Source of the DNA: an uncultured Leptospirales bacterium
GTDB lineage: Bacteria; Spirochaetota; UBA4802; UBA5550
Assembly (NCBI GenBank): GCA_964645775.1
Contig: CAZYBU010000008.1
Coordinates: 2,957-66,956, forward strand
Length of the DNA stretch: 64,000 nucleotides
Direction: 5' to 3'
Made by a program: the position numbers and the translations under genes. Under the pieces are notes generated by a model. It was not told where the DNA came from, did no database searches, and saw only the letters and a list, made by a program, of their open reading frames with translations. Below, piece by piece: positions 3-57,658 of the stretch; positions within the stretch are counted from its first letter, which is position 1; the number at the start of each line of letters is the position of its first letter.

Positions 3-197
3 TACCTTACCGATAACTATCGCCAACTCAGATGGGAAGTACGGGGAGGCAAATACAGTATCGATTTTCTTGCCGGTACCGGCAGGCTCCGGCAGTCACT
101 GTTAGAAGACAAACCGTGGGACGAATTCCTGGAGAGCATTGAAAATAAGGTAAAGGAATATGACAGAAGGGCGGAGCGCTACAGGGTCTATCCCTGA
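3..197 (+). CDS. 3' end of an unidentified gene (partial, continues upstream of window)
   Basis: Open frame from window edge to TGA at 195-197 (..ENKVKEYDRRAERYRVYP*). Convergent with the minus-strand gene ending at 204. No recognisable domain. Confidence 0.3.
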   Translation, partial: YLTDNYRQLRWEVRGGKYSIDFLAGTGRLRQSLLEDKPWDEFLESIENKVKEYDRRAERYRVYP

Positions 198-4870: not shown

Positions 4871-4945
4871 GGGGTGTTAGCTCAGTTTGGTTAGAGTACC
4901 TGCCTGTCACGCAGGGGGTCGCGAGTTCGAGTCTCGTACACCCCG
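4871..4945 (+). tRNA. tRNA-Asp (anticodon GTC)
   Basis: Cloverleaf read by eye. Acceptor GGGGTGT/ACACCCC, anticodon stem CCTGC/GCAGG with loop CTGTCAC, T-arm GCGAG-TTCGAGT-CTCGT. No encoded CCA. Confidence 0.85.
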
Positions 4946-5928: not shown

Positions 5929-7530
5929 ATGATACATACGCTGGAAAGATACTTCCTGTCGCGGCTGGATGAAAAGAACATCGGAATCTACCTGAAAGCC
6001 AGGACCTTCATGTTCTTCAGTCTCATCATCAGTATGGTAATTTTTACACTTTTCATCGCCCTGAACGTCATTGTTCAGCGAGAATTCTTTTCCACTCTAA
6101 ATATTATGCTTTTTGTAATATTCAGTGTCTCCCTTGGAAGCCTCGTGGCCCTTAAGGCGGGCAAATATTACATGGCGGTATTACTTATCCTTATCCCATC
6201 CATGGGAGGATACGCCCTCTATATGTTCTCCGGAAATTTCGTCTATGATGAAGCGGTCATCTTCTCTCCCTATCATCTGATGATATTCATCCTTTTCAGC
6301 GCCCTCTTCGCCAACTGGCAGATAACCCTGACTGTGACGACCCTTGCCATAGGAACAAGTATTTCCAGCATCGTCACATCGGACCGGATCAATCCCGATA
6401 TCATCCCGGTTACCCTTATCAACATGACTTTTGGCATGATAGTTATCGGTATAATCTCCATCCTGATACACAGGATCAATGAACGGGCCAGGCGGCGCCT
6501 CGAGGAGGAGCTGGAGAACCGGAAAGAATATGAACGCACCCTGCAGTTTATCGATTCCATCGAGAGCATATCGGAGCGACTCAGGGACTCTTCCCAGGCC
6601 ATGAGTGACACATCTGCCAACTTTTCGGAAAATGCCCAGAACCAGGCCGCCTCCACGGAGGAGGTGTCCGCCACGGTAGAAGAGATCTCCGCCGTGTCAG
6701 AGCGTGTAGATAACAGCACCTCTCTGCAGAAGACAACCATTCGGGATCTGGTGAGCCGCCTTCAGCAACTGAAGGATACCACATCGGAGATGAAGGACCG
6801 GGTAGAGAGCTCCCTCAGTCGGTCAAACGAAGTCTCGGAGATAACCCGGCAGGGATCGGCATCCATGGAAGAGATGAACGGCCGGATGAAATCCATAAGT
6901 GACCGTTCAGATGAGATGACGGGTATTATCTCGATAATAAATGACATATCGGATCAGATAAACCTTCTTTCCCTGAACGCCTCCATTGAGGCAGCCCGGG
7001 CCGGGGAACAGGGTAGAGGTTTCGCGGTTGTTGCCGACGAGATATCAAAACTGGCGGACCAGACATCCACGAGCGTTCGAAGCATCGCGGACCTGATCAA
7101 AGCCTCGGAGGAGGAGGTCACCTCCGGGAACAGGATCGTGCGGGAGAGCGTGGAGGCTAACCGGAACATTCTTGCCGGAGTCCAGGAGATTGGGCAGGAG
7201 GTGGAATCCCTGGCCAGGACCATGCAGAGTCAGGACGAAGTAACCGTGGAGGTCATCCGTCTGGGTCAGGATGTCAATGTCCGTTCAGAGGAGATAAGCA
7301 CGGCAACAGGCGAGCAGAAGAACGCGGCCCAGGAGATCGTTCGAACCGTTTCCGACATAAGTGAGCTGACACAGGAGAATGCCTCGGGTGCGGAACAGAT
7401 GGCCGGAAGCGCGGAAAGCCTGGCAACCATTGCCGCGGACCTGGACCATCGCCTGGATGAGTTCCAGAATGGCCTGAAAGAACGCCAGGGAGAAGCGGAG
7501 AAAGAAACTGAGAAAGAGGAACAGGCCTGA
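5929..7530 (+). CDS. methyl-accepting chemotaxis protein
   Basis: About 6 N-terminal TM helices. MCP signalling-domain core [42 protein letters not shown]. Confidence 0.85.
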
Positions 7531-10280: not shown

Positions 10281-11168
10281 ATGAGAAAGGAAGCCACAGG
10301 AAAGATAGCGGATAATCTGGAGGCCCTTGGCATAGAAGCCTATCCCTCCTACCTGATCACGGGAAGCGAAAAAAGCTGTATGCTGGAAGCGGGCGTAAGC
10401 CCCCTTGGTACTCGTTACCTGAGAGACCTGGGAGAGAGGAAACCGGAATACCTGATGGTAACCCACGCTCATTACGATCACGCGGGCGCCCTTCCCTTCC
10501 TCTGCGACCGGATCGATTCACTTACGTCCTGCGGTCATCAGAGGGCCACTGAGATATTTCGCAAGGAGAAGGCCATCGCCCTGATGAACAGCCTGAGTAA
10601 AAGTCTTAAACCCTACCTGCGCGAGAATTACGACGACAGCGAGGACCTGGAGATTCGACCGGTCGAATTTGACCGTGTCCTCGAGGATGGCGACATCATA
10701 GACCTGGGCGGCCTGACGATCCGGGTCTACGAGACCCCGGGACACACCCGGGACCATCTCTCCTTCTTCGTGGAAGAGAAAGGATGGCTTTTCCCGGGTG
10801 AGGCCATGGGGAACCCCGATTTCATGAACGAAGATGGAGTAAAGGTGGAGTTTCTTTCATCGTACAACGATTACACGGCCTCCCAGGAAAAACTGTACGA
10901 ATTACGTGATAAGGTAAGCCTTCTGGCGTTCTCACACATCTTCTACTATACCGATGCTGCCGTGAAACAGTTTTTTGACGCAACCATTGATGCCACCCGG
11001 ATCTACCGTGAAAAGCTGGAGGATTTCCTTCATATAACCGGGGGCGAGGTTGAAGCGGCCGTGGAGCTGATGACCCGTAAGGAATACGACCAGAAGAAGA
11101 CCATCTTCCAGGAACGAAACGCCTACATGCTGAACCTGGCAGCCCAGTTCCGGGCCGTGGTGACGTAG
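10281..11168 (+). CDS. MBL-fold metallo-hydrolase
   Basis: HAHYDHAG metal-binding motif and later conserved His/Asp. 295 aa. Likely co-transcribed with the aldehyde:ferredoxin oxidoreductase gene (11-nt gap). Confidence 0.7.
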   Translation: MRKEATGKIADNLEALGIEAYPSYLITGSEKSCMLEAGVSPLGTRYLRDLGERKPEYLMVTHAHYDHAGALPFLCDRIDSLTSCGHQRATEIFRKEKAIALMNSLSKSLKPYLRENYDDSEDLEIRPVEFDRVLEDGDIIDLGGLTIRVYETPGHTRDHLSFFVEEKGWLFPGEAMGNPDFMNEDGVKVEFLSSYNDYTASQEKLYELRDKVSLLAFSHIFYYTDAAVKQFFDATIDATRIYREKLEDFLHITGGEVEAAVELMTRKEYDQKKTIFQERNAYMLNLAAQFRAVVT

Positions 11169-11232: not shown

Positions 11233-11823
11233 TCAAAAAGAGAAGCCCTCCGGCAACTCCGACTCCTTTGTTCCCCCGGGCACCCACGAAAGGTCCAGGA
11301 TCGTGTATGTGGGATCCAGGGTCTGGAAGATGGGGACTACCTTCATCCCTATCTTCGGTTCTCCCAGGGAGAGGTAACTCATCAGGATCGTGGAGACCCC
11401 TTCAAATTCAATGTTTATAAACCGTATCGGTTTATCCAGGATATTGAAAGCCCCGGACCTCTCGCAAACCATGAAGGTATGGACCGTGGACTTTTTCTTC
11501 GCGATATCGGTCATATCGATAATCGTGTTCCTGCCCAGACAATCCGGACAATGAATACGGAAGGGCTGGTAGACCGTGCCGGTAAACTCACAATCCCTGT
11601 TGTCGCATCTTGTAGCCAGAAGCTTTCCCTGTGACAAACCCTCAAAGAAGGGCGCTTCTCCCCCGTAGGTGTGGATATAGGTCATATCCCGGGGATTGGT
11701 GACGCCCAGAAGCTTCCAGTTCTCATCCGCGTTGCGGATCGGCAAGTTGGGTGTCATGTGATGAAAGTCACCCTTGATCCTGTACTTGTTGTCCTGTACG
11801 TGAACTAATCCTATCATACTCAT
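11233..11823 (-). CDS. DUF35 (Zn-ribbon + OB-fold) acyl-CoA-associated protein
   Basis: C-x2-C...C-x2-C zinc ribbon (CDNRDCEFTG...CPDCLG) followed by an OB-fold region. AAGGAG SD. Immediately downstream of a thiolase-fold gene (BbsA/BbsB-like pairing). Confidence 0.8.
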   Translation of the reverse strand: MSMIGLVHVQDNKYRIKGDFHHMTPNLPIRNADENWKLLGVTNPRDMTYIHTYGGEAPFFEGLSQGKLLATRCDNRDCEFTGTVYQPFRIHCPDCLGRNTIIDMTDIAKKKSTVHTFMVCERSGAFNILDKPIRFINIEFEGVSTILMSYLSLGEPKIGMKVVPIFQTLDPTYTILDLSWVPGGTKESELPEGFSF

Positions 11824-15100: not shown

Positions 15101-15958
15101 TTATTTCCGTATACCCATGATCTCCCGGGCCTCGTCCGGGGTGGCCGGCTCGTGTCCCAGGGCCTGAATAATACGAACGGCATTCTCCACCAGTTCGTGG
15201 TTTCCCTCGGCTACCCGGCCGTCCGGCATGCGGGTGTTGTCTTCCAGGCCGACCCGAAGATGTCCTCCCAGAAGAACAGACTGGGTAATGGCCGGCCACT
15301 CCTGGCTTCCCACGCCGCAGGTAGTAAAGTTGGCCTTCTCCGGAAGGGCGTGCACATAATCGACGAAGGTCCCGGGCCGGAAGGCGGCCCCGCCGCAGAC
15401 CCCCCAGACAAAGTTGAAATTGATGGGGTCCGTAAAGTACCCGGTATTGCTCAGGAAATGATAGTTATCCAGGCCGGCCATGCTGTAGCACTCCAGTTCA
15501 GGCTTGACCTGGTTCTCGTGCATGATCCGGGCGAAGTTTTTTACCATCTCCAGCTTGTTCTCGAAGGTGTAGTCCGCCAGGATCTCACCCGTCTTACGAT
15601 TGATGCCGGCAAAGTTCATGGTCGCCATATTCAGGGATGCCATCTCGGGCCGGATGGCCTCTATCTGACCAATCCTCTGCTCCGACGTGGCCCCCATACC
15701 CAGGGCGGATGTCAGGTTCACAATCAGTTCCGGGGTCTTCTCCTTAATTCGATCATGGCTCTCCCGTATACGATCTACGGACACGGAGTTGCTCCCGTCA
15801 TCCTCAACCGCATGGACATGAACCATGGAGGCTCCCGCCTTGTATACCCGGGCGGCCGCTTCCGCCAGTTCATCCGGGGTATAAGGTGTATTCGGATTCT
15901 GCGATTTTCTGGTGGCAGACCCCACCAGCGCACAGGTAACAATCACCTTTCGTCCCAT
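15101..15958 (-). CDS. 3-keto-5-aminohexanoate cleavage enzyme family (BKACE/DUF849) beta-keto-acid cleavage enzyme
   Basis: MGRKVIVTCALVGS...MVHVHAVEDDGS, typical BKACE TIM-barrel signature. AGGAGG SD. Confidence 0.8.
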   Translation of the reverse strand: MGRKVIVTCALVGSATRKSQNPNTPYTPDELAEAAARVYKAGASMVHVHAVEDDGSNSVSVDRIRESHDRIKEKTPELIVNLTSALGMGATSEQRIGQIEAIRPEMASLNMATMNFAGINRKTGEILADYTFENKLEMVKNFARIMHENQVKPELECYSMAGLDNYHFLSNTGYFTDPINFNFVWGVCGGAAFRPGTFVDYVHALPEKANFTTCGVGSQEWPAITQSVLLGGHLRVGLEDNTRMPDGRVAEGNHELVENAVRIIQALGHEPATPDEAREIMGIRK

Positions 15959-15998: not shown

Positions 15999-17804
15999 CT
16001 AGTTTTCCTCGTACATGGTCTCGATAACATCCTCAAACTTGTCCTGGACGATATTTCTCTTTACCTTGAGAGAGGCGGTCAGTTCACCGCTATCCTGGGT
16101 GAACTCGTGCTTGAGGACCTTGTACTTTTTGATGGTCTCAACGCGGGAGAGCTCGTTATTGCTCTCTTCCACGATCTCATCTATGATCTTCAGGAAATCC
16201 CTGTTCGTCCTCAGGTCTTCCGGTTTATCGAACATGATACCCTTCTCTTTTGCCATCTGGGCCGCAACCTCGTAGTTGAGGTTTATAAGAGCCGTCAGGT
16301 ATTTCCTCTTATCACCTACCACAACAAACTGCGCAAAAAGAGGATTCTTCTTGAAAAGGGTCTCGATCTTCTGGGGAGCAATATTCTTACCACCTGCCGT
16401 AATGATAAGATCCTTCTTGCGATCCGTAATGTAGAGCCGACCACTCTTATCGAAATGACCGATGTCTCCTGTTTTGAAATAACCGTCTTCCGTGAAGATC
16501 TCGCTTTTCAGCTCATCCATTTTCCAGTATCCGCTGAAGACCATGTCCCCCTTCATGAGAATCTCGCCATCCTCCGCGATCTTCATATCAAGGCCTGGCA
16601 GGGGACGTCCCACGGAACCGGGGCTGAAATCGTCCAGATTGCTGAGAGTGCCCCCCCCGCAGACCTCAGACATGCCGTACCCCTCGAGAACAAAGATGCC
16701 GGCGGCGTTGAAAAAGTTGACGATCTCCCTGGCTATGGGACCTCCAGCCGCGCACATCCAGCGAACCTGACCTCCCAGTGCCTGTTGAAGTTTCTTGAAG
16801 ACCAGGGCATAGGCCAGCTTGTGCCGCATCTTCAGGCCCAGAGGATGGGGAATCTGCTGTTCGTCACACCTGCTGTATTCGGCACCTACCCTCTGAGCCC
16901 AGGCAAAGAGCTTCTGTACCAGGGGAGGCTTCTCCTTGATGGCCATGACCATCTTCTGGTAGATTTTCTCGTGCACTCTGGGTACGGCAAAAAGTATGGT
17001 CGGTTTCTTGGCCTGTATGTCTTCGACCAGTGTTTCCATGGAACCGGCGTAATGCTTTGTGATTCCCTTGAACATGATGTACATGTGAACCGGCACACGC
17101 TCAAAGATATGACTGAGAGGCAGAAATCCCACGTTGATATCATCCTCGTACCCGAATTTCGGTTCCACAGCATCAAGGGCGTAGATATTGGCCATGATGT
17201 TACCGTGGCTCAGCATGGCACCTTTGGGCATCCCCGTTGTCCCGGACGTGTACTGCAGGGTGGCCAGGTCATCCGGTCCCACTTCGGCAGAAAGCTTTTC
17301 AAAGAGATCTGATTCCTTATCATGAAGGGAAGCGCCTCTCTCGTCCAGTTCCTGGTAACTGATAATAGTACTTCCATTGAGGTCAGCACCTTCCGTATCC
17401 ATGACCGCAATGACCTCCAGTTCTCCCCCGGCACTGAGAGTATCCTTTGCCTTGGCAAGCTGCGTGGCGTTTTCCACGATTAGAACCTTTGATCCGGAAT
17501 TACGCAACACATAATCGACCTCATCCCTGGCCACCGTAGCGTAAATGGGAACCACGATAGCTCCGATGGAGAGACCTCCCATATCCGTGTAGACCCATTC
17601 AAGACGGTTCTCGGAGAGTATGGCCACCCGGTCACCCTTGCGGACTCCCAGTTCATAAAGACCGAGACCGGCTTGCCTTGCTCGATCGTAGTACTGGTTC
17701 CATGTGGCACTGACCCAGGTTTCCCCGTACCGCTTGTCCATGGCGAACCTGTCACCATAGGTATTAACCCTGTTTTTGAAGACATCTACAATAGTTTTTT
17801 CCAT
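15999..17804 (-). CDS. long-chain-fatty-acid--CoA ligase (AMP-binding)
   Basis: AMP-binding motifs (TSGTTGMPKGAML, GYGMSE, ITDRKKD). Start moved to ATG 17804 (MEKTIVDVF) with GGGAGGTG SD. Confidence 0.85.
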   Translation of the reverse strand: MEKTIVDVFKNRVNTYGDRFAMDKRYGETWVSATWNQYYDRARQAGLGLYELGVRKGDRVAILSENRLEWVYTDMGGLSIGAIVVPIYATVARDEVDYVLRNSGSKVLIVENATQLAKAKDTLSAGGELEVIAVMDTEGADLNGSTIISYQELDERGASLHDKESDLFEKLSAEVGPDDLATLQYTSGTTGMPKGAMLSHGNIMANIYALDAVEPKFGYEDDINVGFLPLSHIFERVPVHMYIMFKGITKHYAGSMETLVEDIQAKKPTILFAVPRVHEKIYQKMVMAIKEKPPLVQKLFAWAQRVGAEYSRCDEQQIPHPLGLKMRHKLAYALVFKKLQQALGGQVRWMCAAGGPIAREIVNFFNAAGIFVLEGYGMSEVCGGGTLSNLDDFSPGSVGRPLPGLDMKIAEDGEILMKGDMVFSGYWKMDELKSEIFTEDGYFKTGDIGHFDKSGRLYITDRKKDLIITAGGKNIAPQKIETLFKKNPLFAQFVVVGDKRKYLTALINLNYEVAAQMAKEKGIMFDKPEDLRTNRDFLKIIDEIVEESNNELSRVETIKKYKVLKHEFTQDSGELTASLKVKRNIVQDKFEDVIETMYEEN

Positions 17805-26720: not shown

Positions 26721-27890
26721 TTACAGTTCGTTACTCAGGATCATGACATCGGACCAGAAGCACCCGCCGAAACCGGTGGCCAGGGCGTTCTTCACTTCCG
26801 GCACCTGGCGTTTGTCACCCTTTCCCATGACCTGGATGGCCGCCTCGGCCACGCGCAGGATGGCTGTTGCCCCAATACAATTGGTACTGATCACCCCTCC
26901 CGAGGGATTGACGGGAATCTTTCCGCCCATGTGGGTATTTCCCTCCCGGACGAACTTCGCTCCCTCTCCGGGACCACAGAACTGCAAATCCTCGATCCAC
27001 TTGAGCCCGGCCCAGGTATAGGGCAGGTAGAGCTCGGCGACGTCCAGTTCCTCAGCCGGCTTCGTTATGCCCGCCTGTTTGTAGGCGTCCCTGGAAGCCC
27101 GCTGGAGGGAGACCAGTCCCTCGGTATAGTTGGTCGAGTCCCCGAACCAGGTATAGGTATGTCGAACGGCCGTTCCCCTGACCCAGGCCGGTTTGGAGGT
27201 CATCTTCCTGGCCACATCTTCGGCCGCGAAGATCACAGCCCCGGCCCCGTCCGTGCGGGGACAGATGTCACCCAGTTTAATAGGGTAGGCCAGCATGGGA
27301 GATTCCATGATCTCCGCAACACTCAGGGGTTTCTGGAGGTGGGCAAAGGGATTGTTCAGGGCATTGGCCCGGTCCCTTTCGGCGATGAGAGCCGCGTTCT
27401 CCTGTGTGGCCCCGTACTGTTCCATGTAGGCCGTGGCCTCCGTGGCCAGGCTCGGTATGGCACCCGAGTAGGAGAACCGGTCCCAGATGGGATCGCTGCA
27501 GGTTATGATTGCGGCCGTGGTATCGCTCTCGGAGTTCTTCTCCCATCCTATGGCCAGGACCCGGTCGAAAAGACCGCTGGCCACGTGGTAGTATGCGGCG
27601 ATGGCCACGGAAGCTCCCGTGGTACCGCCCGTGGAGACCTTCATGATCGGTTTCATGACTCCGCCGGTCCCCTCTACGCTCCAGGTATCCACGTAATTTA
27701 TGGATTCAAAGTGGTCCATGTTACCGATAACTATCGCGTCGATATCGGCGATTGTGATTTCACAGTCCTCCAGGGCCCGGGTTACGGCTTCGTTAATCAT
27801 CTCCCTCTGGTTAACATCGGGCCTGTGACTTTTATGGTAGGTCTGTCCTGTTCCGACTATGGCTACGTTTCGTCCCATGCTTAACCTCAC
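26721..27890 (-). CDS. thiolase-fold protein, Cys-less 'type A' (SCP-x/Ltp2-like)
   Basis: Thiolase fold. Nucleophile position reads STGGTTGAS (no Cys). C-terminal STNCIGATA (Asn in place of His). Start overlaps the stop of the type B partner (27887). Confidence 0.75.
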   Translation of the reverse strand: MRLSMGRNVAIVGTGQTYHKSHRPDVNQREMINEAVTRALEDCEITIADIDAIVIGNMDHFESINYVDTWSVEGTGGVMKPIMKVSTGGTTGASVAIAAYYHVASGLFDRVLAIGWEKNSESDTTAAIITCSDPIWDRFSYSGAIPSLATEATAYMEQYGATQENAALIAERDRANALNNPFAHLQKPLSVAEIMESPMLAYPIKLGDICPRTDGAGAVIFAAEDVARKMTSKPAWVRGTAVRHTYTWFGDSTNYTEGLVSLQRASRDAYKQAGITKPAEELDVAELYLPYTWAGLKWIEDLQFCGPGEGAKFVREGNTHMGGKIPVNPSGGVISTNCIGATAILRVAEAAIQVMGKGDKRQVPEVKNALATGFGGCFWSDVMILSNEL

Positions 27891-29524: not shown

Positions 29525-30754
29525 TCAGACCGTGAGCATAAGCGCTTCGCCCTGGGAGAGACCTCCGCATATTGCGGCCACGCCTCTTCCTCCGCCCCTG
29601 CGCATAAGCTCGTACATCAGGGTCATGGTTATACGTGCGCCGCTGGCGCCCACCGGATGGCCGATGGCAATGGCGCCGCCGTTCACGTTTGTCTTCTCCT
29701 TGAGGAGATCCATCTTCTTCCGGTCTCTGCCCGCCAGTTCCTTGAGGGAGACCAGGGTAACGGCCGCGAAGGCCTCATTTATCTCGATAAGGTCGATATC
29801 ATCGATAGTTGAACCGGCCCGGGAAAGCATCTTATCAATGGCCTGGGCCGGAACGCAGGCCATGTACTTGGGGGAACCGGCCGCGGCCTGGGTATAGTCA
29901 ACCCTGGCCAGGGGCTCCAATCCCTTCTCCTCAGCCTTCTTCCGCGACATGAGAACGATGGCCGAGGCCCCGGAGTTCATGCCCGGAGCGTTGCCGGCCG
30001 TTACTGTTGGGCTTCCGTACACAGGTTTAAGGCGGGCCAGCTTCTCCATGCTGGAGTCTTCCCTGGGCGACTCGTCCCGGTCCATGACAACAGGGTCACC
30101 CTTTCTCCGGGGTGCCTCACAGGTCATCATCTCCTCGCCTACCTTGAACTTCCCGGCTTCAAATGCCTGGAACCATCTCCGGTGGCTTCCCATGGCCCAC
30201 TCGTCCTGTTCCTCGCGGGAGACATCGTACTCAACGGCCACTTCCCCCGCGTCCGTTGCCACGGGAGCGAATCCCCGGCGTCCGTAACCCAGTTCAAAGA
30301 GGACATCCTCCAGAGGCATGTGTCCCAGACGGGACCCCCACCTTGCCTTCTCAGCCGGGGCAATAAGGGCAGCGTTACCCATGTTCTCCGCGCCGGAAGC
30401 GATAACTATCTCCGCGTTCCCGGAACGGATCGACTGGTACCCCAGGCGCATTGCCGTCATGGATGAACAGCAGGCCCGGTCAAGGGTAAGGGAGATGTTA
30501 TCATCAGGAAAACCGGCGCCAAGGGTTATCTGCCGCGCCGGCACGTTAGTGTAGAGGGAGTACTCGGCCGGGATACAGGTCCCGTAGTAGACCTCGTCCA
30601 CCTCGCTCTTATCCAGGTTTATGCGTTCGGTCACTTCCTTCAGAGTTGCGATACTGAGATCAAAGCTCAGAACATTCTTTAATACTCCGTCAAACTTCCC
30701 GAAAGGGGTCCGAACCGCGCTTACGATAACAACATCATCAGGGTTTGTGCTCAT
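29525..30754 (-). CDS. acetyl-CoA C-acyltransferase (thiolase II, catalytically complete)
   Basis: Nucleophile Cys (RACCSSMTAM), GHPVGASG and CGGLSQG C-terminal motifs. Confidence 0.85.
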   Translation of the reverse strand: MSTNPDDVVIVSAVRTPFGKFDGVLKNVLSFDLSIATLKEVTERINLDKSEVDEVYYGTCIPAEYSLYTNVPARQITLGAGFPDDNISLTLDRACCSSMTAMRLGYQSIRSGNAEIVIASGAENMGNAALIAPAEKARWGSRLGHMPLEDVLFELGYGRRGFAPVATDAGEVAVEYDVSREEQDEWAMGSHRRWFQAFEAGKFKVGEEMMTCEAPRRKGDPVVMDRDESPREDSSMEKLARLKPVYGSPTVTAGNAPGMNSGASAIVLMSRKKAEEKGLEPLARVDYTQAAAGSPKYMACVPAQAIDKMLSRAGSTIDDIDLIEINEAFAAVTLVSLKELAGRDRKKMDLLKEKTNVNGGAIAIGHPVGASGARITMTLMYELMRRGGGRGVAAICGGLSQGEALMLTV

Positions 30755-30784: not shown

Positions 30785-32302
30785 CTATCGGAAACCGTAG
30801 TCCTTATCCAGGATATCTCCGGCACACAATATCCCTGAAACAATGGCACAGTCCATGGCCACACCGTATCCCCGGGCCGTGTCTCCCGCGAAGAACAGTC
30901 CCTCAACGTGCCTCGAACGTACCGGGAGTTTCTGTGTGCCGGCCTGGGAGATGCTCTTGGCCACGCCTTCCAGCTTCCAGCATACCAGGTCCAGTTTCCA
31001 GTCCACGCTCTCGTTAAAACCGGGGTAAATCTCCTCCATGAAATGGGGGAGTCGATCCACGATCTTACGGACTAAACTCTTATCCAGAGCCTCCTTCTCG
31101 GTAAGGGGGAGATAGGCGGTGTAGAGATATTTCCCTTCCGGGGCCACGGTCGGATCAATGGCGGACTGGATATTCCAGCAGATGTAGACATCGGAATCAA
31201 AGCCTTCTTCTTTGGGAAGGACACAGGTATTCTTGATTCCCATGCGCGCCTCCTCTTCCGGCATAACCAGTTTATTGAGCCCCATGTAGGGAACGTAACT
31301 TCCGTACCCGTACATCGATTCAGTCTTTTTCACCCAATCTTCCGGAAAGAGGGATGGATCGATCATCTTGAAGGTAAGCTGGCCCGGCACGTTGCTGACC
31401 ACCCGGCCTGTGCCGATGGTTTTATCTCCTTCGGGCGTCTCGACCCGGACACCGGTGACCTTCGCATCTTCAACCTCGATCTGCCGCACCTTCGCGTTCA
31501 GCATCAGCTCGCCGCCGAAGGACTCGAACTTGCGGGCCACAGCTTCGGACCATTTCATGGTACCGCCTTCCACGAAGCCTCCCACGTGCCGCAGAACTCC
31601 CTTCGAGAGCTTGGGCTGGAAGGCGTGCTTGAAGTACCGGAAGATATCTCCCATGGAGATGTCTTCCGGGTTATTAATCGTGGAGAAGAGGGTTGCCACC
31701 GTGTGAAGGTGATTATAGATGATTTCGTTTTTTGTTATTCCTTTCTTCTCCGCCCAGTCCCGGAAAGAGACCCCTTCCAATCCGTCGATCTCCTCGTCGG
31801 ACATGGTGTAGGCATCGGAGTAGAAATCGAGGTAGGGTATGCCCTCCTCTTTGGCCATGATCTTCAGCTTCGGGTCGATATTGCTGCCGGCCACGTCCCG
31901 GTAGATCTCGCCCTTGTACCAGGAGGCATAATCGGAACCGTACCGGTTCACATCCTCTATGCCGCCGATCAGTTCCTCGAAGTCCATCATGTATCCTGCA
32001 CCATTGGCGCTCAGAGCGTGGTACCCGATGTCGAGTGTGTAGCCGCGGAGCATGCCGGAGGATACCAGTACCTCTGCCGGGGGCGTGGAGTTGGCAATAT
32101 AGGTGTACTGGCTCTTTAGGATGTTCCTGTACCAGTCCAGGCCCTTATCGGTTATATCATCACCGCTTACGGACAGGGCCCGTCCCCCTACCCGGTCGTT
32201 CTGTTCAACGAGGAGTACCTTTTGCCCCTCCTTTGCCAGAAGAGTGGCCACGGAAAGCCCTCCCACACCGGCACCGATAACTATCGTGTCGTAACTCTTC
32301 AC
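30785..32302 (-). CDS. FAD-dependent oxidoreductase, phytoene desaturase (CrtI) family
   Basis: N-terminal GAGVGGL...EQNDRVGGRA dinucleotide-binding motif. 505 aa with CrtI-like length and architecture. Confidence 0.8.
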   Translation of the reverse strand: MKSYDTIVIGAGVGGLSVATLLAKEGQKVLLVEQNDRVGGRALSVSGDDITDKGLDWYRNILKSQYTYIANSTPPAEVLVSSGMLRGYTLDIGYHALSANGAGYMMDFEELIGGIEDVNRYGSDYASWYKGEIYRDVAGSNIDPKLKIMAKEEGIPYLDFYSDAYTMSDEEIDGLEGVSFRDWAEKKGITKNEIIYNHLHTVATLFSTINNPEDISMGDIFRYFKHAFQPKLSKGVLRHVGGFVEGGTMKWSEAVARKFESFGGELMLNAKVRQIEVEDAKVTGVRVETPEGDKTIGTGRVVSNVPGQLTFKMIDPSLFPEDWVKKTESMYGYGSYVPYMGLNKLVMPEEEARMGIKNTCVLPKEEGFDSDVYICWNIQSAIDPTVAPEGKYLYTAYLPLTEKEALDKSLVRKIVDRLPHFMEEIYPGFNESVDWKLDLVCWKLEGVAKSISQAGTQKLPVRSRHVEGLFFAGDTARGYGVAMDCAIVSGILCAGDILDKDYGFR

Positions 32303-37898: not shown

Positions 37899-37914
37899 AC
37901 CGATAACTATCGGC
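37899..37914. promoter_or_regulatory. 16-bp palindrome ACCGATAACTATCGG(c) in crotonase-thiolase intercistronic gap
   Basis: Inverted 7-bp arms ACCGATA/TATCGG. Overlaps the crotonase stop codon. Ends 25 nt upstream of the thiolase start. Member of a dispersed family (see findings). Confidence 0.4.
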
Positions 37915-39657: not shown

Positions 39658-40278
39658 TTATGTTCTCCGGGTAATCCCTTCCATAAAGACGAATGTTGTT
39701 GTATCCATAGTCGGTTCCATGGGGAATTCACCGTTCAGGTTACTGTAAACGTATTTCCTGATTACTCCATCAATAGATCCATGAAGCAGGGAGGATAACA
39801 GATCGGGCGGAATCTCTTTTATAAAGATGCCCTTTTCCTGTCCCTGTTTGAAAATATCCGCGATTCTATGGAAATATTGATCATAGAGAATCTGGCAGGT
39901 CTCTTCATAGAAAGCATCCAGCCTGGGAACATCCATGATAAGAACTTTCATCAAATCGGGATGATCTCTGTAGTTGCTATAAAGATAGCCGATCACTTCT
40001 TTTAACTTCTCGTGAGGTGGAACAGAGGAGGCTTCGATTTCATCGAGTTTGCCCAGAAATCGACTCCATGCACTTCGATATATTGTTAGAAGAATCTCTT
40101 CTTTGCTCGGGTAATAATGATAAAAGAGTCCGTATGCGATGTTAGCCTCGTTCATGATATCAGCAATCCTGCAGCGGTAATACCCCTTACGCGCGAATAT
40201 TTTCACAGCAGCTCTTCTTATAAGCTCCTTTTTTGAAATCTCAGCTTTTTTAGCGTACTTTTTCAAAGCATCCTTCAC
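39658..40278 (-). CDS. TetR/AcrR-family transcriptional regulator
   Basis: HTH RRAAVKIFARKGYYRCRIADIMNEANIAYGLFYHYYPSKEEIL, paralogous to 7537..8133. Start codon is GTG at 40276-40278. Confidence 0.85.
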   Translation of the reverse strand: MKDALKKYAKKAEISKKELIRRAAVKIFARKGYYRCRIADIMNEANIAYGLFYHYYPSKEEILLTIYRSAWSRFLGKLDEIEASSVPPHEKLKEVIGYLYSNYRDHPDLMKVLIMDVPRLDAFYEETCQILYDQYFHRIADIFKQGQEKGIFIKEIPPDLLSSLLHGSIDGVIRKYVYSNLNGEFPMEPTMDTTTFVFMEGITRRT

Positions 40279-40290
40279 AAATCACCATGA

Positions 40291-40338
40291 TTGACAGGTC
40301 AGTCAACATGCGCACTGTATCGATTGATTGGTCAATCG
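40291..40338. promoter_or_regulatory. candidate TetR operators: TTGACaggtcaGTCAA (40291-40306) and CGATTGAttggTCAATCG (40321-40338)
   Basis: Two inverted repeats within 60 nt upstream of the TetR start. The second shares the TTGATTGA half-site with the site at 17829. Confidence 0.45.
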
Positions 40339-40385
40339 TCAATATTAATTTTCTTCCATGACTCTTTTTGATAAAAAAAATCAAA

Positions 40386-40404
40386 GATCTGGATAGTTAT
40401 CGGT
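40386..40404 (+). repeat. left 19-bp inverted repeat GATCTGGATAGTTATCGGT
   Basis: Perfect reverse complement of 41157..41175. Contains the GGATAGTTATCGG palindrome-family core. Confidence 0.6.
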
Positions 40405-40469
40405 GCTTTTTTTTCCAAATCAGGCTTCCCGGGCGTGTACCATATATAACACAAAAGAGGAAGAATAGG

Positions 40470-40904
40470 ATGATTGAAACAACTGTTAACATGCACATGA
40501 AGACAAGGTATAAGCTCTTGCAAGCTTCGAATAAGACCGGATTGTGTTTCAACAGGCTAATCAGGTTACTACTGCAGTATTCGCTTAGAGATGAAGATAA
40601 CACTATTTCATCTTTTGGAAGAATACGATACCAGGACAGAAGAGAGACAAAGGACTGGACCAGATTCCATTTAACCCTCGATGAGAGGGATTATGAATTA
40701 TTGCTGGATGTTCGCAAGTTCTACAAGGTATCGGTATCTCTGTTTCTTGCTCGAGCTATTGATACCATATTAAGAACGTTGATAAATCGTATCCTGAAAA
40801 AATCCCTTGATCTGGATAACTATCCAATAAACTGCTATACCATAATACAAGCCACAACAGATAATGGAGATGTATATTGGAAACTGTACTGGGGGATTCC
40901 CTGA
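40470..40904 (+). CDS. small ribbon-helix-helix-like DNA-binding protein (hypothetical)
   Basis: Start set at ATG 40470 (MIETTVN) with AGAGGAAGA SD. The ORF-track start at 40368 has no SD. Central FHLTLDERDYELLLDVRKFYKVSVSLFLARAID fits a beta-strand-helix-helix (CopG/Arc-like) pattern. Internal GGATAACTATCC palindrome at 40813-40824. Confidence 0.5.
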   Translation: MIETTVNMHMKTRYKLLQASNKTGLCFNRLIRLLLQYSLRDEDNTISSFGRIRYQDRRETKDWTRFHLTLDERDYELLLDVRKFYKVSVSLFLARAIDTILRTLINRILKKSLDLDNYPINCYTIIQATTDNGDVYWKLYWGIP

Positions 40905-41156
40905 TTCTGGCAGTTAATCATAAATCAGCATCTCCTGGCAGTTCTTCAGATAAGGTATGATTTATACTGCACCAATACTATTGTCCGTAAAGAAGACGCT
41001 TGATAATACATCGATGAATTTCTTGCAATTTCAGGCAGGTGAATTATTCTCTATCAATGGAACAGGATTGTCCAGGGGTTAATTTAACTGAAAAATTCCA
41101 CTTTTCTCGAACAATCATGAATATGAATAGATTCTCATGTTGTCCCAGAAAAATGA

Positions 41157-41175
41157 ACCGATAACTATCCAGATC
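41157..41175 (-). repeat. right 19-bp inverted repeat (reverse complement of 40386..40404)
   Basis: ACCGATAACTATCCAGATC on the plus strand. Together with the left copy it brackets a 790-bp segment. Confidence 0.6.
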
Positions 41176-41178
41176 AAT

Positions 41179-43008
41179 TTAGCTATTATGACATTTCTTT
41201 TCCATTCCTGGTATCTGTTCAAGCAGCTGCCCCAGGTTTTCAGGGAAAAGAGCCGCACGACCCTTTTCCAGAAGGTTATAATTACTTTGCCAGTAATTCA
41301 TCAGCTGTTTTCTGTATTTATCAGCAATCTGCACCGAATCATTTACCTGCTCGCGCGCAAAACGATTCAAAAACTGATATTTCCATGAGATAGTTATCGC
41401 CAACTTTCGTTCAAGGGCAACAAGGTCTTTCCAGAGAGGTCTACCTTTTTTATCAATGGTTTTTCGAACCCTTTCTTCGAAATCAAGGATACTCCTGGCA
41501 ATGGATCTCCGAAAAACGTCTGCCTTGATAATATCATCCGTTATATGAAAGAAATGATATCCCTTCACCGCAAACCCGACAGCAAGAGAAAAGCGTTTAG
41601 GAAATCTACCAAGTACATTGAAAAGGAATGTAAGGTATTCCAAACCGTGCGATGAGAACGTCTGCCGAACAAGTGAGTTGAGAAATGCCCTGATGTCCCG
41701 CAGTGTCAGATTATAGGAAAGATAATCATTGACCTGAAGTCTCTCCAGCAGCTTGAGACACCTCTGGAAATAGCGTTTCGGATCATAAATACGTTTTAAA
41801 AGATCCCGATACCCCATAACCAGTTCACTTTTATCCATCACCGGTATAAAGTTTAGTTCCAGGTCATGGGTATTATTTCCCCTCAGACCATCCAGAAGCC
41901 TCCCTTCTCGCTTCAACCGTCGCGCCAGACGTGTTCTGGGTAGAGCCACCAGCAAGCCTACCATGGCAACGGGGATGGCTGCCTTCTGAATAAATTCAAG
42001 CTGACGATCAAATATGGTACTGTCATCGGAATCAAATCCAACGATAAACCCGGCGGTTACCTCGAGGCCCTTTCTCTGGATTGTTTCGACGGATTCCAGT
42101 ATATCCATCCGTGTATTCTGATGTTTATGTGCCGCAGCAAGTGTCTCATTGTCCGGCGTTTCAATTCCTATAAAGACCATATCAAACCCTGATTCCACCA
42201 TAAGGTCCATCAGGTCTTCATCTTCCGCCAGATTAATGCTTGCCTCTGTATATAACCTGAAGGGATAATTCCTTTCTTTCTGCCACTCTGATACGTGTTT
42301 AAGCAGATCACGAACTTTTCCCCGATGACCTATAAAGTTGTCATCCACGATAAAAATACCACCTCGGTATCCCGTATCATACAAGGCCTCCATCTCAGCC
42401 AGAAAACAACCGGGTTTCTTGGTGCGGGTAACACGACCGAACATCTCGATTATATCACAGAATTCGCAGTTATAGGGACACCCTCTTGAGAACTGAAGAC
42501 ACATGCTCACGTAATCATCATGATCGATCAGGTCAAAACGGGGTACCGGTGTCTGATTAAGTGATGGCTTTGTTTCATCCTCGTATACATGTTTTGCAAC
42601 GCCCAACTCATAATCTCGTATAAATTCCGGAAGAGTTATTTCAGCTTCATTGAGCACGAAATGATCCACACCTTCGATCTTTTCTCTCGAAGAGGTAGGA
42701 TAGGGTCCACCCGCCACAACAATAATTCCTGCTTCCCGGCATCTTTGTATGGTCTCTTCAAATGATTTTTGCTGAACGATCATGGCGGAAAGGAAGACGG
42801 TATCCGCCCAATCCAGGTCTTTCTTCTCCAGTTTTCGCACATTCAGGTCAACCAGTCGTACCTCCCACTCATCCGGCAGGAGCGCTGCCACGGTCAATAA
42901 TCCCAGGGGAGGAAAGGTCGCTTTCTTGTCAATAAAGGACATGACGTAACGGTAACTCCAGTACGTGGAAGGGATCTCGGGATAAATCATCAGTACTCTT
43001 CGATTCAT
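41179..43008 (-). CDS. B12-binding radical SAM protein (with C-terminal DUF4070-like region)
   Basis: N-terminal cobalamin-binding Rossmann segment (PLGLLTVAALLP). CxxxCxxC cluster (GCPYNCEFCD). 609 aa. Confidence 0.8.
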   Translation of the reverse strand: MNRRVLMIYPEIPSTYWSYRYVMSFIDKKATFPPLGLLTVAALLPDEWEVRLVDLNVRKLEKKDLDWADTVFLSAMIVQQKSFEETIQRCREAGIIVVAGGPYPTSSREKIEGVDHFVLNEAEITLPEFIRDYELGVAKHVYEDETKPSLNQTPVPRFDLIDHDDYVSMCLQFSRGCPYNCEFCDIIEMFGRVTRTKKPGCFLAEMEALYDTGYRGGIFIVDDNFIGHRGKVRDLLKHVSEWQKERNYPFRLYTEASINLAEDEDLMDLMVESGFDMVFIGIETPDNETLAAAHKHQNTRMDILESVETIQRKGLEVTAGFIVGFDSDDSTIFDRQLEFIQKAAIPVAMVGLLVALPRTRLARRLKREGRLLDGLRGNNTHDLELNFIPVMDKSELVMGYRDLLKRIYDPKRYFQRCLKLLERLQVNDYLSYNLTLRDIRAFLNSLVRQTFSSHGLEYLTFLFNVLGRFPKRFSLAVGFAVKGYHFFHITDDIIKADVFRRSIARSILDFEERVRKTIDKKGRPLWKDLVALERKLAITISWKYQFLNRFAREQVNDSVQIADKYRKQLMNYWQSNYNLLEKGRAALFPENLGQLLEQIPGMEKKCHNS

Positions 43009-43372: not shown

Positions 43373-44068
43373 ATGTTTCTCGGAATTGACCCCCTGTACT
43401 GGATGATGATGATACCGGTATTTCTGCTTTCAGCTGTGGCGTCCTGGAAAGTAAAGAGTACTTTCAAAGAATTTTCCAAAAAGGCAAACAGCTCAGGTCT
43501 GACCGGGGCCGAAATTGCGGCCCAGATCCTTCGAAGAAACGGGCTTTCCCATGTACGGGTTGAGCAGGCCAGCGGTTTCCTGTCTGACCATTACGATCCC
43601 ACAAAAAAGGTTGTCCGCCTGTCACCGGACGTGTACGGTAGCAGGTCGATCTCCGCCATAGGCGTCGCCGCCCATGAAACAGGACACGCCATCCAGCATG
43701 CCAGATCATACAGTCCTCTTGTACTGAGAAATATGCTGGTACCGGTAGCGTCGATCGGGTCGAACCTTTCCTGGATCATAATTTTCGCCGGGTTTATCTT
43801 CGGTGCCCTGGGGCTGGTCAAGATAGGCATAGTCCTGTTCAGCGCCGTTGTTGTGTTCCAACTGCTGACCCTGCCCGTTGAATTCAACGCCTCTACCAGG
43901 GCAAAGGAGCTTCTTGGAAAATACGGCATCGTTTCAAGGACGGATGCCCAGGGAGTGGCGAGTGTACTGAACGCGGCAGCCATGACCTATGTCGCGGCTG
44001 CAGCCAGCGCCATTATGACCCTTCTCTATTTCCTTCTCAGGGCCGGTATCCTGGGAGGGAACGATTAG
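43373..44068 (+). CDS. putative zinc metallopeptidase (Zn_peptidase_2-like membrane protein)
   Basis: HETGHAIQH zinc-binding motif. N- and C-terminal TM helices. GAGGAGG SD. Confidence 0.75.
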
Positions 44069-49120: not shown

Positions 49121-49136
49121 ACCGATAGTTATCGGT
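49121..49136. promoter_or_regulatory. 16-bp perfect palindrome ACCGATAGTTATCGGT
   Basis: Just downstream of the Gfo/Idh/MocA gene stop (49142) in the gap before the GT4 gene. Flanked by GGTACC-like extension. Confidence 0.4.
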
Positions 49137-57079: not shown

Positions 57080-57658
57080 ATGAAAATACTGATCATTAAC
57101 GCCAGCCCGAGAAAAAAGGGTGTTACACGCCAGGCACTTGAACGGTTGAGGGAAGGCCTGGCAAACCATACTGTTGAATGGCATGACATACACAGGCTCT
57201 CCATCCGGCCCTGTACCGGCTGCCTGAAGTGCAGACCCGGCGGAGAGTGCGTTCTCAAAGAGGATGACGGGCACCTCATGGCCGGGAAGATCCGGTGGGC
57301 CGACCTGATAGTTATCGGTTCCCCTGTTTACTGGGGCAACATCCCGGGCACCCTGAAGATACTCTTTGACCGGAACGTCCCCCTCTTTGAGGAGGTGGAG
57401 GCGGGCCCCATGAATCGAATACCGGAACCGCGCCTCAGGGGTAAGGAAGCGATAACTATCAGCAGCTGTGGTTCCCGGTTTCCCTTCAGTCTTCTTCCCT
57501 CTCAGGCTGGAGGGACCGTTCAGGCGTTGAAAACCATACTCCGGTCAGGTGGGATCAGAATCCGGAAGAATCTGATCATCTCGGATTCTTACAGGTTCAA
57601 TAACAAGAAGGACAATTGGTTCAGTAAAATCGACCGTATGGCGGGGAAGATCAGGTAG
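57080..57658 (+). CDS. flavodoxin-like NAD(P)H-dependent FMN reductase / iron-sulfur flavoprotein-like
   Basis: MKILIINASPRKKGVT FMN-binding start. CTGCLKCRPGGEC cysteine cluster. Confidence 0.7.
   Translation: MKILIINASPRKKGVTRQALERLREGLANHTVEWHDIHRLSIRPCTGCLKCRPGGECVLKEDDGHLMAGKIRWADLIVIGSPVYWGNIPGTLKILFDRNVPLFEEVEAGPMNRIPEPRLRGKEAITISSCGSRFPFSLLPSQAGGTVQALKTILRSGGIRIRKNLIISDSYRFNNKKDNWFSKIDRMAGKIR

Follow-up and report, generated by a model that had tools for sequence, protein, structure and literature searches.

A tandem ribbon-helix-helix gene between inverted copies of a hyper-abundant genomic word in Spirochaetota, and its product as a candidate reader of that word

The ribbon-helix-helix locus

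A 64,000-nucleotide stretch of the genome of an uncultured Leptospirales bacterium (Spirochaetota; assembly GCA_964645775.1, contig CAZYBU010000008.1, positions 2,957 to 66,956), referred to below as the window, contains at positions 40386 to 41175 a single small gene for a ribbon-helix-helix (RHH) protein enclosed by perfect inverted repeats. Each repeat arm is a copy of a short sequence that recurs across the window, here called the word, and a third copy lies within the gene itself. In window coordinates, the elements of this 790-bp locus are as follows.

40386 to 40412, minus strand: left arm, with one copy of the word, which reads ACCGATAACTATCCAGATC on the minus strand (core 40392-40401)
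40470 to 40904, plus strand: RHH gene, encoding a single-chain tandem RHH protein of 144 amino acids
40809 to 40827, plus strand: internal copy of the word, GATCTGGATAACTATCCAA, read as the codons of D-L-D-N-Y-P (core 40815-40824)
40905 to 41148, no strand: AT-rich, non-coding spacer of 244 bp from the RHH stop codon to the right arm
41149 to 41175, plus strand: right arm, with a copy of the word, ACCGATAACTATCCAGATC, at 41157-41175 (core 41160-41169)

The 19-nt arms are exact, as the first-pass annotation of this DNA had stated: GATCTGGATAGTTATCGGT at 40386-40404 on the plus strand is the reverse complement of 41157-41175. Beyond the two arms, the window holds no further copy with up to three mismatches (0.02 expected). 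Inwards, the complementarity of the arms extends to 27 nt at 93% (40386-40412 and 41149-41175). T-rich flanks had been described on the outside of both repeats; the T-runs are in fact found on the inner, gene-facing sides of the arms, within the extended repeat, and the inner side of the left arm runs on into such a T-run; outside the arms, the DNA is not T-rich. The 19-bp inverted repeat arises because the upstream and downstream copies of the word lie in opposite orientation. Six extra bases, CAGATC, are common to both arms (P of about 2e-4 for that pair) and suggest a local duplication or conversion event, in which one arm may have been copied from, or converted by, the other.

The two arms differ in their conservation. 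The left arm lies 80 bp upstream of the RHH start codon, between the divergently oriented TetR and RHH genes, and its position and orientation match those of the upstream copy found in five Spirochaetota loci among those used for comparison (L023, L032, L033, L036 and L037). In a 96%-identical strain (L040), which has the same arrangement, both arms are exact while nearby intergenic bases vary; in particular, the left arm is retained despite eight other intergenic differences between 40297 and 40469. The right arm lacks conservation in relatives. Only 4 nt separate its end from the stop codon of a convergent B12-radical-SAM gene (41179-43008, minus strand), and it belongs to a group of five intergenic window copies located 0-16 nt past a stop codon.

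Within the gene, a palindrome had also been reported. The sequence in question, GGATAACTATCC (40814-40825), is palindromic except for its central AC, and it proves to be part of the third copy of the word, GATCTGGATAACTATCC at 40809-40825. The sequence GATCTGGATA has three copies in the window (0.17 expected), all of them at the RHH locus, and three copies of the word within 790 bp exceed even the high local background (Poisson P = 0.0011). The 244-bp spacer contains no open reading frame (ORF) with homologues, no Rfam match and no terminator-like site. Directly after the RHH stop codon, it carries a direct repeat, CTGGCAGTTAATCA and CTGGCAGTTCTTCA, with a spacing of 28 nt (40907-40948). Across the whole window, the single Rfam match is a tRNA at 4871-4945, and nothing was matched in the 790-bp segment.

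The RHH gene is read from ATG 40470, which follows a GAGGA ribosome-binding site, rather than from TTG 40368; its homologues all open with MIETT. Its earlier assignment as an RHH protein is borne out, and the peptide on which that assignment was based turns out to be the second of two RHH repeats carried by one polypeptide. With six sequences, AlphaFold gave a moderate model with a predicted local distance difference test score (pLDDT) of 70. With 37 family sequences, AlphaFold2 reached a pLDDT of 88.7 and a predicted template modelling score of 0.81, and the model consists of two successive beta-alpha-alpha units followed by a hairpin. In particular, repeat 1 is predicted to comprise a strand at residues 2-9 and helices at 10-23 and 27-40, and repeat 2 a strand at 63-70 and helices at 72-85 and 89-109; the C-terminal beta-hairpin is placed at 123-141, and the loop before it carries the D-N-Y residues encoded by the internal copy of the word. 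In the model, the N-terminal strand of the beta-alpha-alpha unit pairs into an antiparallel ribbon, as is characteristic of the RHH superfamily.

The window protein has no Pfam match, and no Pfam, NCBIfam, PHROG or PADLOC family covers it. A profile of the family matched CopG in the PDB (1b01, E = 0.003). Among 46 members, weak Pfam matches were obtained to DUF6364 (8), RHH_3 (6) and RHH_1 (2), and some members showed weak matches to Arc-like PHROGs or to DndE; a search for DUF1564 found nothing. The fold is known and the family is undescribed. Mean identity within the family is only about 35%, yet the ribbon positions T4, T5 and H67 show little or no variation and W63 is strongly conserved, a pattern that fits a single DNA specificity shared by the family. 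The linker between the two RHH repeats holds an invariant RIRYQxR motif, in which Y54 and Q55 are identical in all 46 aligned sequences. Together with D-N-Y and a YWK..WG.P motif in the hairpin, it makes up a set of family-specific invariant motifs outside the RHH repeats (residues 51-57 and 116-144), which have no counterpart in TraY, AvtR or DndE.

An exhaustive profile search returned 687 clusters at 50% identity (E <= 1e-3), nearly all of them with proteins of about 145-160 amino acids. In species-representative genomes, 30 of 30 matches came from Spirochaetota or from metagenome-assembled genomes (MAGs) of Leptospirales, and the members, all from Spirochaetota, bear the source names "hypothetical protein" or "RHH domain-containing protein". 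A metagenome scan yielded distant members alone (27-37% identity) and no new close relatives, and none were found on viral contigs. Single genomes carry several paralogues, at least six in one MAG and at least four on one 4.8-Mb contig. Paralogues occupy at least three stable orthologous contexts (crotonase/RHH/beta-lactamase-like; adk/RHH/speH/Fe-S protein; HTH-PBP/RHH/class II ribonucleotide reductase (RNR)), and the neighbours in relatives are housekeeping genes such as opuA, mraZ, adk, speH and that for RNR. No partner gene recurs across non-orthologous loci. In particular, a co-oriented adjacent toxin gene, as in type II toxin-antitoxin modules with an RHH antitoxin, is absent, and the RHH gene stands alone here and in all other loci.

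A dispersed word within and between genes

Oriented by its central AC, the word reads GGnACCGATAACTATC. It is asymmetric, 13-16 nt long, and consists of a near-palindromic core and one strong flank. The dispersed family of palindromes to which the repeats had been assigned is real and more pronounced than described: GATARYTATC occurs 16 times in 64 kb, where 0.27 copies are expected from shuffled sequences and 0.1 from base composition. It is the most repeated 10-mer of the window, the next unrelated 10-mer having five copies. The exact 10-mer lies about 160-fold above expectation and the exact 13-mer has 11 copies, whereas one-mismatch variants are at chance level (5 versus 3.1 expected). In the window and its three closest relatives, the left flank is ACC in 27-29 of 32 copies, and the right flank is GGT, which completes the palindrome, in about a third to under half of them; AC/GT forms the centre of 33 of 35 copies, and the centre is never a palindromic dinucleotide. 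There is no strand skew in the window (nine copies on the plus strand, seven on the minus). Outside the RHH locus, its copies are the following, given by the 10-nt core.

12 to 21, plus strand: intergenic, ACCGATAACTATCGCC
6438 to 6447, minus strand: in a chemoreceptor gene, as I-V-I-G
15460 to 15469, minus strand: in a BKACE gene, as D-N-Y
27726 to 27735, plus strand: in a thiolase-like gene, as I-V-I-G
30401 to 30410, plus strand: in a thiolase gene, as I-V-I
32276 to 32285, plus strand: in the FAD-binding motif of an amine-oxidase-family gene, as D-T-I-V-I-G-A-G
37902 to 37911, plus strand: between enoyl-CoA hydratase and thiolase genes, with the TAG stop codon of the hydratase gene inside the word
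41389 to 41398, minus strand: in the radical-SAM gene, as I-T-I
49124 to 49133, minus strand: full 16-nt palindromic form, ACCGATAGTTATCGGT, 9 nt past an oxidoreductase stop codon
53178 to 53187, minus strand: full 16-nt form, 7 nt past an MFS transporter stop codon
55284 to 55293, plus strand: 16 nt past the stop codon of a TOBE-domain gene; a CAAX-protease-like gene follows after 38 nt
57307 to 57316, minus strand: in an FMN-reductase gene, as I-V-I-G
57451 to 57460, plus strand: in the same FMN-reductase gene, as I-T-I

Eight of the 16 window copies lie in coding DNA, in frame and on either strand. The genes that hold coding copies (chemoreceptor, BKACE, two thiolases, amine oxidase, radical-SAM, FMN reductase twice, and the RHH gene) and others that adjoin a site, such as those for the MFS transporter and a glycosyltransferase, are functionally unrelated. 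The coding copies reflect a strong bias in codon choice: I-V-I is spelled ATAGTTATC in six of its seven occurrences in the window (3.4% expected; P = 1e-8), D-N-Y is spelled GATAACTAT in three of three (about 11% expected), and I-T-I is spelled ATAACTATC in two of four (about 1% expected). In the window lineage and its three closest relatives, the word has a density of about one copy per 2-4 kb. Moreover, L004 and L006, two loci with 81% nucleotide identity, have kept each of their four sites without change, although just 17% of 10-nt windows survive between them (P = 8e-4). The word is thus exact, lies in and between unrelated genes and is conserved between species; the dispersed family is therefore a hyper-abundant, maintained genomic word and not a set of operators of a local regulon. 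The proposal that the repeats mark a regulon across this locus is inadequate on the same grounds, as the genes are unrelated, about half of the copies are coding, and exact copies come with no excess of degenerate ones, which makes them unlike usual operator sets.

The perfect 19-nt inverted repeats around a single gene led to the suggestion of a miniature mobile or cassette-like element of 790 bp that ends in these repeats, came to its present location by transfer and seeded the dispersed sites. The low GC content (36-40%), the occurrence of homologues in several genomic contexts and a 17-nt inverted pair in locus L001, which encloses a homologue and a second gene, are consistent with this idea. 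However, the outer flanks (...ATCAAA| and |AATTTA...) show no target-site duplication, and a transposase or recombinase is absent, the sole ORF having a DNA-binding fold. No second copy of the gene or of the unit exists in the window or in any of the 20-kb comparison loci, and what is repeated is the 13-19-nt word, never the 790-bp unit. Dispersal is limited to a 10-16-nt word, half of whose copies are in-frame codons in conserved domains; many copies represent codon choice inside such domains rather than insertions. The low-GC tract is not confined to the unit either: it reaches from 39.6 to 43.3 kb and takes in the TetR and radical-SAM genes. Among relatives, the gene is conserved and the bracketing is not, since a downstream copy within 400 bp accompanies only 9 of 45 family genes and is missing from the close relatives L004 and L006; this is a situation that the first-pass annotation itself had named as refuting. 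Across species, orthologous positions remain stable with partial synteny kept, and the family has no relatives on viral contigs. An empty site lacking the unit was not found: the sole close relative (96%) has the unit, and distant Spirochaetota keep the gene near a Zn-peptidase gene. A mobile element is accordingly very improbable here, and this reading is close to refuted.

The two arms, separated by 0.77 kb, are near-palindromes in inverted orientation, with AC/GT, a non-palindromic dinucleotide, at the centre and a small DNA-binding-protein gene between them. Such a layout also recalls an invertible switch of the Hin/Gin type, in which recombination between the arms would flip the gene and its promoter. 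Neither the ORF nor its neighbours has a serine- or tyrosine-recombinase domain, however, and one and the same orientation is seen in three independent assemblies (the window, L009 and the 96%-identical L040). At a density of hundreds of words per genome, recombination between copies would be catastrophic, and the bracketing itself is not conserved, so that very little credence can be given to inversion.

Many non-coding copies lie at the ends of genes: 19 of 43 are within 30 nt of a stop codon and eight of these copies include the stop codon itself. A TAA or TAG within the word serves as a real stop codon at 37902-37911 in the window, at 4666 in L001, at 8390 in L004 and at 8279 in L006, and the upstream sites of L023, L032, L033, L036 and L037 are used in the same way. 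Such placement, and the ability of full palindromic copies to form hairpins of 6-8 bp, could mean that the word acts in RNA, as a hairpin, terminator or processing site at 3' ends. Yet the arms fold no better than shuffled sequences (z = +0.1 to +0.2), there are no U-tracts and no terminator-like sites, the second half of the palindrome is missing from most copies, and genes themselves hold half of the copies, on either strand. A role as a TetR/FadR-like operator of fatty-acid genes might likewise be considered, as the left arm lies between the TetR and RHH genes and one copy lies inside the beta-oxidation operon. The TetR gene, however, has separate palindromes of its own by its start (TTGACAGGTCAGTCAA, 40291-40306), and the word is absent from 6.8 kb of a syntenic operon with TetR and beta-oxidation genes (L041/L042). 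Both proposals are highly unlikely and were rejected, the former for the shuffled-like folding of the arms and the lack of terminator-like sites, the latter for the TetR gene's own palindromes and the word-free operon.

Paired copies of the full 16-nt form occur in one Spirochaetota MAG (L021), where two intergenic copies (ACCGATAGTTATCGGTATAACCGATAACTATCGGT) have their cores 19 nt apart (16766-16794). A second pair in the same locus (155-206) is 42 nt apart, and both pairs are far from any family gene.

The RHH protein as a candidate reader

The internal copy of the word is a general feature of the RHH family. GATAAC(T/A)ATC is present at identical codons in 40 of 45 distinct family genes; of the others, one has GATAACTATA and two differ slightly from the motif (GATAAG AAT). 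Across 34 genes aligned by codon, the stretch is ACC GAT AAC TAT/AAT CGN, with GAT for 34 of 34 Asp and AAC for 32 of 32 Asn; any preceding Thr is encoded by ACC, and no AGR codon is used for the Arg that follows. At other positions of these genes, a conserved Asp is encoded by 24 GAT and 10 GAC, and conserved Tyr, Thr and Arg residues (Arg mostly as AGG or AGA) have mixed codons. In Spirochaetota loci that are not saturated with the word, D-N-Y is spelled GATAACTAT in 16 of 16 family genes versus 4 of 23 other genes (Fisher P = 1.5e-7), and I-V-I is spelled with the word in only 4 of 68 cases. As the family keeps the word in 16 of 16 cases despite the lack of saturation, the link to the word is gene-specific and not a by-product of a genome-wide drive.

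Copies outside the coding sequence are less regular. An upstream copy, 75-124 bp before the start codon, accompanies 14 of 45 family genes, and in five loci it holds the stop codon of the preceding gene. No co-variation was seen between the internal variant (TAT or AAT) and upstream copies, as both variants mix, and no consistent geometry of the strong half-site around bracketed genes was found between the window, L001 and loci of the L012 type. In L012 (copies at 10495 and 10952; also in L013, L018 and L020), which represents one conserved Spirochaetota context, inverted copies of the word flank the S-adenosylmethionine decarboxylase gene that neighbours the RHH gene, at distances of 13 and 31 nt, an arrangement that echoes the bracketing in the window.

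The repeats, the fold and the family, the fixed internal codons, the hyper-abundance of the word and the conservation of its sites between species can be brought together in one reading, to which we assign a probability of roughly 55%: the locus would encode a resident, self-regulating single-chain tandem RHH protein, with GGnACCGATAACTATC as its cognate word. The RHH protein is likely the reader of the word, judging from the association between genes and sites. One polypeptide would form the two-stranded beta-ribbon that otherwise requires an RHH dimer and would bind the word as a pseudo-dimeric monomer. Because the two ribbon strands differ, such a single-chain reader would recognise an asymmetric, pseudo-palindromic site, and the word, with its strong ACC flank, matches a pseudo-dimer with unlike halves. 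Autoregulation through copies of the word is plausible: the copy 80 bp upstream and the internal copy, both ancestral, together with the lineage-specific copy 256 bp downstream would give the protein control over its own expression, which could act by promoter occlusion, by an elongation roadblock or by looping between sites.

Several points weigh against this reading. At least six paralogues in Spirochaetota genomes embed the same word, which is unusual for specific regulators, and one paralogue, or an unrelated factor, may be the real reader. The internal copy in the window has the weak left flank CTG in place of ACC, and L001, L004 and L006 have their sites in another orientation towards the gene than the window does. 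Across the relatives as a whole, the upstream site is not consistently overlapped by a convincing, conserved sigma-70 promoter. Exact copies with no degenerate variants would be explained by a molecular drive no less well than by selection for protein binding. The tie between protein and word is purely associative, the saturating pattern comes from four lineages with about 100 kb in total, and the gene calls in the comparison loci are rough ORF calls.

Rather unlikely, though far from negligible, is the converse view that another factor reads or generates the word, the RHH gene being its preferred target or a bystander and the RHH protein binding some other site. A DNA-uptake receptor, a sequence-specific drive by repair or gene conversion, a modification system or another regulator could be that factor. 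Such an agent would account for the all-or-none pattern, with exact copies about 160-fold over expectation and one-mismatch variants at chance, for a saturation at codon level that resembles uptake sequences and HIP1, and for one word common to many paralogues; D-N-Y would be spelled with the word automatically, as it is in three of three cases in the window. However, it accords poorly with the family genes, which keep the word in all 16 cases in unsaturated loci (compared with 4 of 68 for I-V-I and 4 of 23 for D-N-Y outside the family) and in which the flanking ACC and CGN codons are fixed as well. Furthermore, extra copies cluster just upstream or downstream of family genes, the invariant ribbon residues parallel the invariant word, and the asymmetric single-chain protein matches the asymmetric site.

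Proteins with the same architecture are known. TraY, AvtR and DndE are natural single-chain proteins with two RHH units, in which the monomer is equivalent to an RHH dimer (PMC10853773). TraY, a component of the F plasmid relaxosome, shares with the family the two RHH repeats per chain; however, identity is about 12%, there is no match to the TraY Pfam family, and the relaxase, oriT and transfer genes found near TraY are absent both from the surroundings of the RHH gene and from the loci of relatives. In contrast to TraY, the family is chromosomal, multi-copy in Spirochaetota and extended by the C-terminal beta-hairpin. AvtR is viral (from an archaeal lipothrixvirus) and single-chain Arc is engineered, and neither has a dispersed word or a site in its own gene. 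DndE occurs with a DndD-type ATPase and dndABC, none of which is adjacent to the RHH gene in any locus, and Dnd target motifs have about 4 bp, as opposed to 13-16 for the word.

The closest parallel to the word is HIP1 (GCGATCGC) of cyanobacteria, which is 15- to 300-fold over-represented, lies in and between genes, is conserved between genomes and has been suggested to act in nucleoid structure (PMC5861425). A perfect palindrome of 8 bp, HIP1 has been linked to orphan methyltransferases (PMC4390886); no known reader protein accounts for its abundance (PMC5861425, PMC4390886). The word resembles HIP1 in its excess of about 160-fold, in its share of about one half of coding copies and in the conservation of four of four sites at 81% identity. 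It differs in being 13-16 nt long and asymmetric rather than a perfect palindrome, in belonging to another phylum and in its tie to a particular protein family, in the genes of which it is embedded. Uptake sequences (USS of Pasteurellaceae and DUS of Neisseriaceae) are exact, oriented words of 9-12 nt that occur about once per kb or per few kb, in and between genes and often at 3' ends, are accommodated by the choice of codons and peptides, and are read by surface competence proteins. The word is likewise exact, oriented and dispersed in and between genes; its candidate reader, however, is a cytoplasmic RHH protein, and its paired copies form no terminators, unlike those of uptake sequences. 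No competence genes are visible in the 64-kb window, competence itself not having been assessed.

In the MatP/matS and ParB/parS systems, a DNA-binding protein, which in the case of MatP uses the RHH fold, reads a dispersed near-palindrome of 13-16 bp; about 10-25 sites occupy one region of the chromosome, and the partners include ParA and the divisome. One parS site of Bacillus subtilis lies within the coding sequence of spo0J/parB and provides a precedent for a site inside the gene of its own reader. Unlike in these systems, the word saturates coding DNA, the protein has another domain architecture and there is no conserved partner gene. REP/RAYT units (REPtrons) consist of a small gene flanked by inverted copies of a dispersed repeat, the gene product, RAYT, being an HUH/Y1 transposase and the REPs being structured and strictly extragenic. 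The RHH locus is similar in that a single small gene stands between inverted copies of a genome-wide repeat. In contrast to RAYT, the RHH protein has no Y1_Tnp match, a single conserved His outside an HUH motif and an RHH fold; unlike REPs, the word is unstructured, and 8 of its 16 copies are coding.

We found no described counterpart of a 13-16-nt asymmetric saturating word paired with a family of candidate readers that embed it in their own genes, and a literature search for the word returned primers alone and no paper that mentions it. The word has expanded in the window lineage and its three closest relatives, using almost every synonymous opportunity. Its expansion and conservation point to a genome-wide role for the putative protein-word pair, for which nucleoid organisation or a mark of self-DNA fits better than a gene-specific regulon, by analogy with the systems above. 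That Spirochaetota possess a system of genomic word plus reader, in which the word saturates at least four lineages as a chromosome-wide tag, is possible, and we put it forward tentatively.

To our knowledge, hyper-abundant words such as HIP1 have stayed unexplained for decades, partly because no reader protein was known. If the proposed reading is true, the word would be the first of the HIP1 or uptake class with an identifiable cytoplasmic reader. A family of about 690 clusters that has no Pfam or NCBIfam model provides a candidate reader open to direct testing, and lineages with few or with saturating sites offer a natural comparison. Confirmation of binding would give a new handle on the origin and function of such words and a name to many hypothetical proteins that form a sizeable family. 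Should binding fail to be confirmed, the saturation at codon level and the 100% synonymous conservation within family genes would stand by themselves.

Surrounding genes and a second near-palindrome

The RHH locus is bordered on the left by the TetR gene and a beta-oxidation operon and on the right by the radical-SAM gene. Between 39600 and 43350, a tract with the TetR, RHH and B12-binding radical-SAM/DUF4070 genes and the intergenic region that follows has a GC content of 32-48%, compared with 52-60% in the flanks. Further to the right comes the Zn-peptidase gene (43373-44068). In five Spirochaetota loci, a gene some 7 kb downstream of the RHH gene has 72-74% identity to it and the same orientation, which indicates retained partial synteny and, together with the distribution of the family, suggests that this DNA derives from a Spirochaetota relative.

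The left side has other affinities. The segment 33822-40278, with TetR, 3-hydroxyacyl-CoA dehydrogenase, crotonase, thiolase and thiolase-like/OB-fold genes, is collinear with the operon of L041/L042, from a MAG labelled as Deltaproteobacteria (GCA_021162585.1), at 54-73% protein identity. Homologues of the TetR protein are either 99% or at most 55% identical. The differing affinities of the operon and of the Zn-peptidase gene hint at horizontal transfer of the beta-oxidation operon or at a mislabelled taxonomy. Upstream of the start of the TetR/FadR-like gene (39658-40278, minus strand), a second palindrome, GATTGATTGGTCAATCGTCAAT (about 40322-40343), accompanies TTGACAGGTCAGTCAA, and a promoter-like site lies on the minus strand at 40342-40314; the two palindromes are likely TetR operators unrelated to the dispersed word.

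A second near-palindrome, (A)TATCCWGGATA(T), with a CCWGG core, is also over-represented in the window (about 6 copies versus about 0.4 expected), at 11433, 26252, 29063, 30805, 33385 and 57698, and was not found in related loci. Three of its copies encode I-L-D-I in paralogous OB-fold genes, so that part of its excess is due to protein paralogy. The heptamer TATCCAG is common to this sequence and to the arms of the RHH locus.

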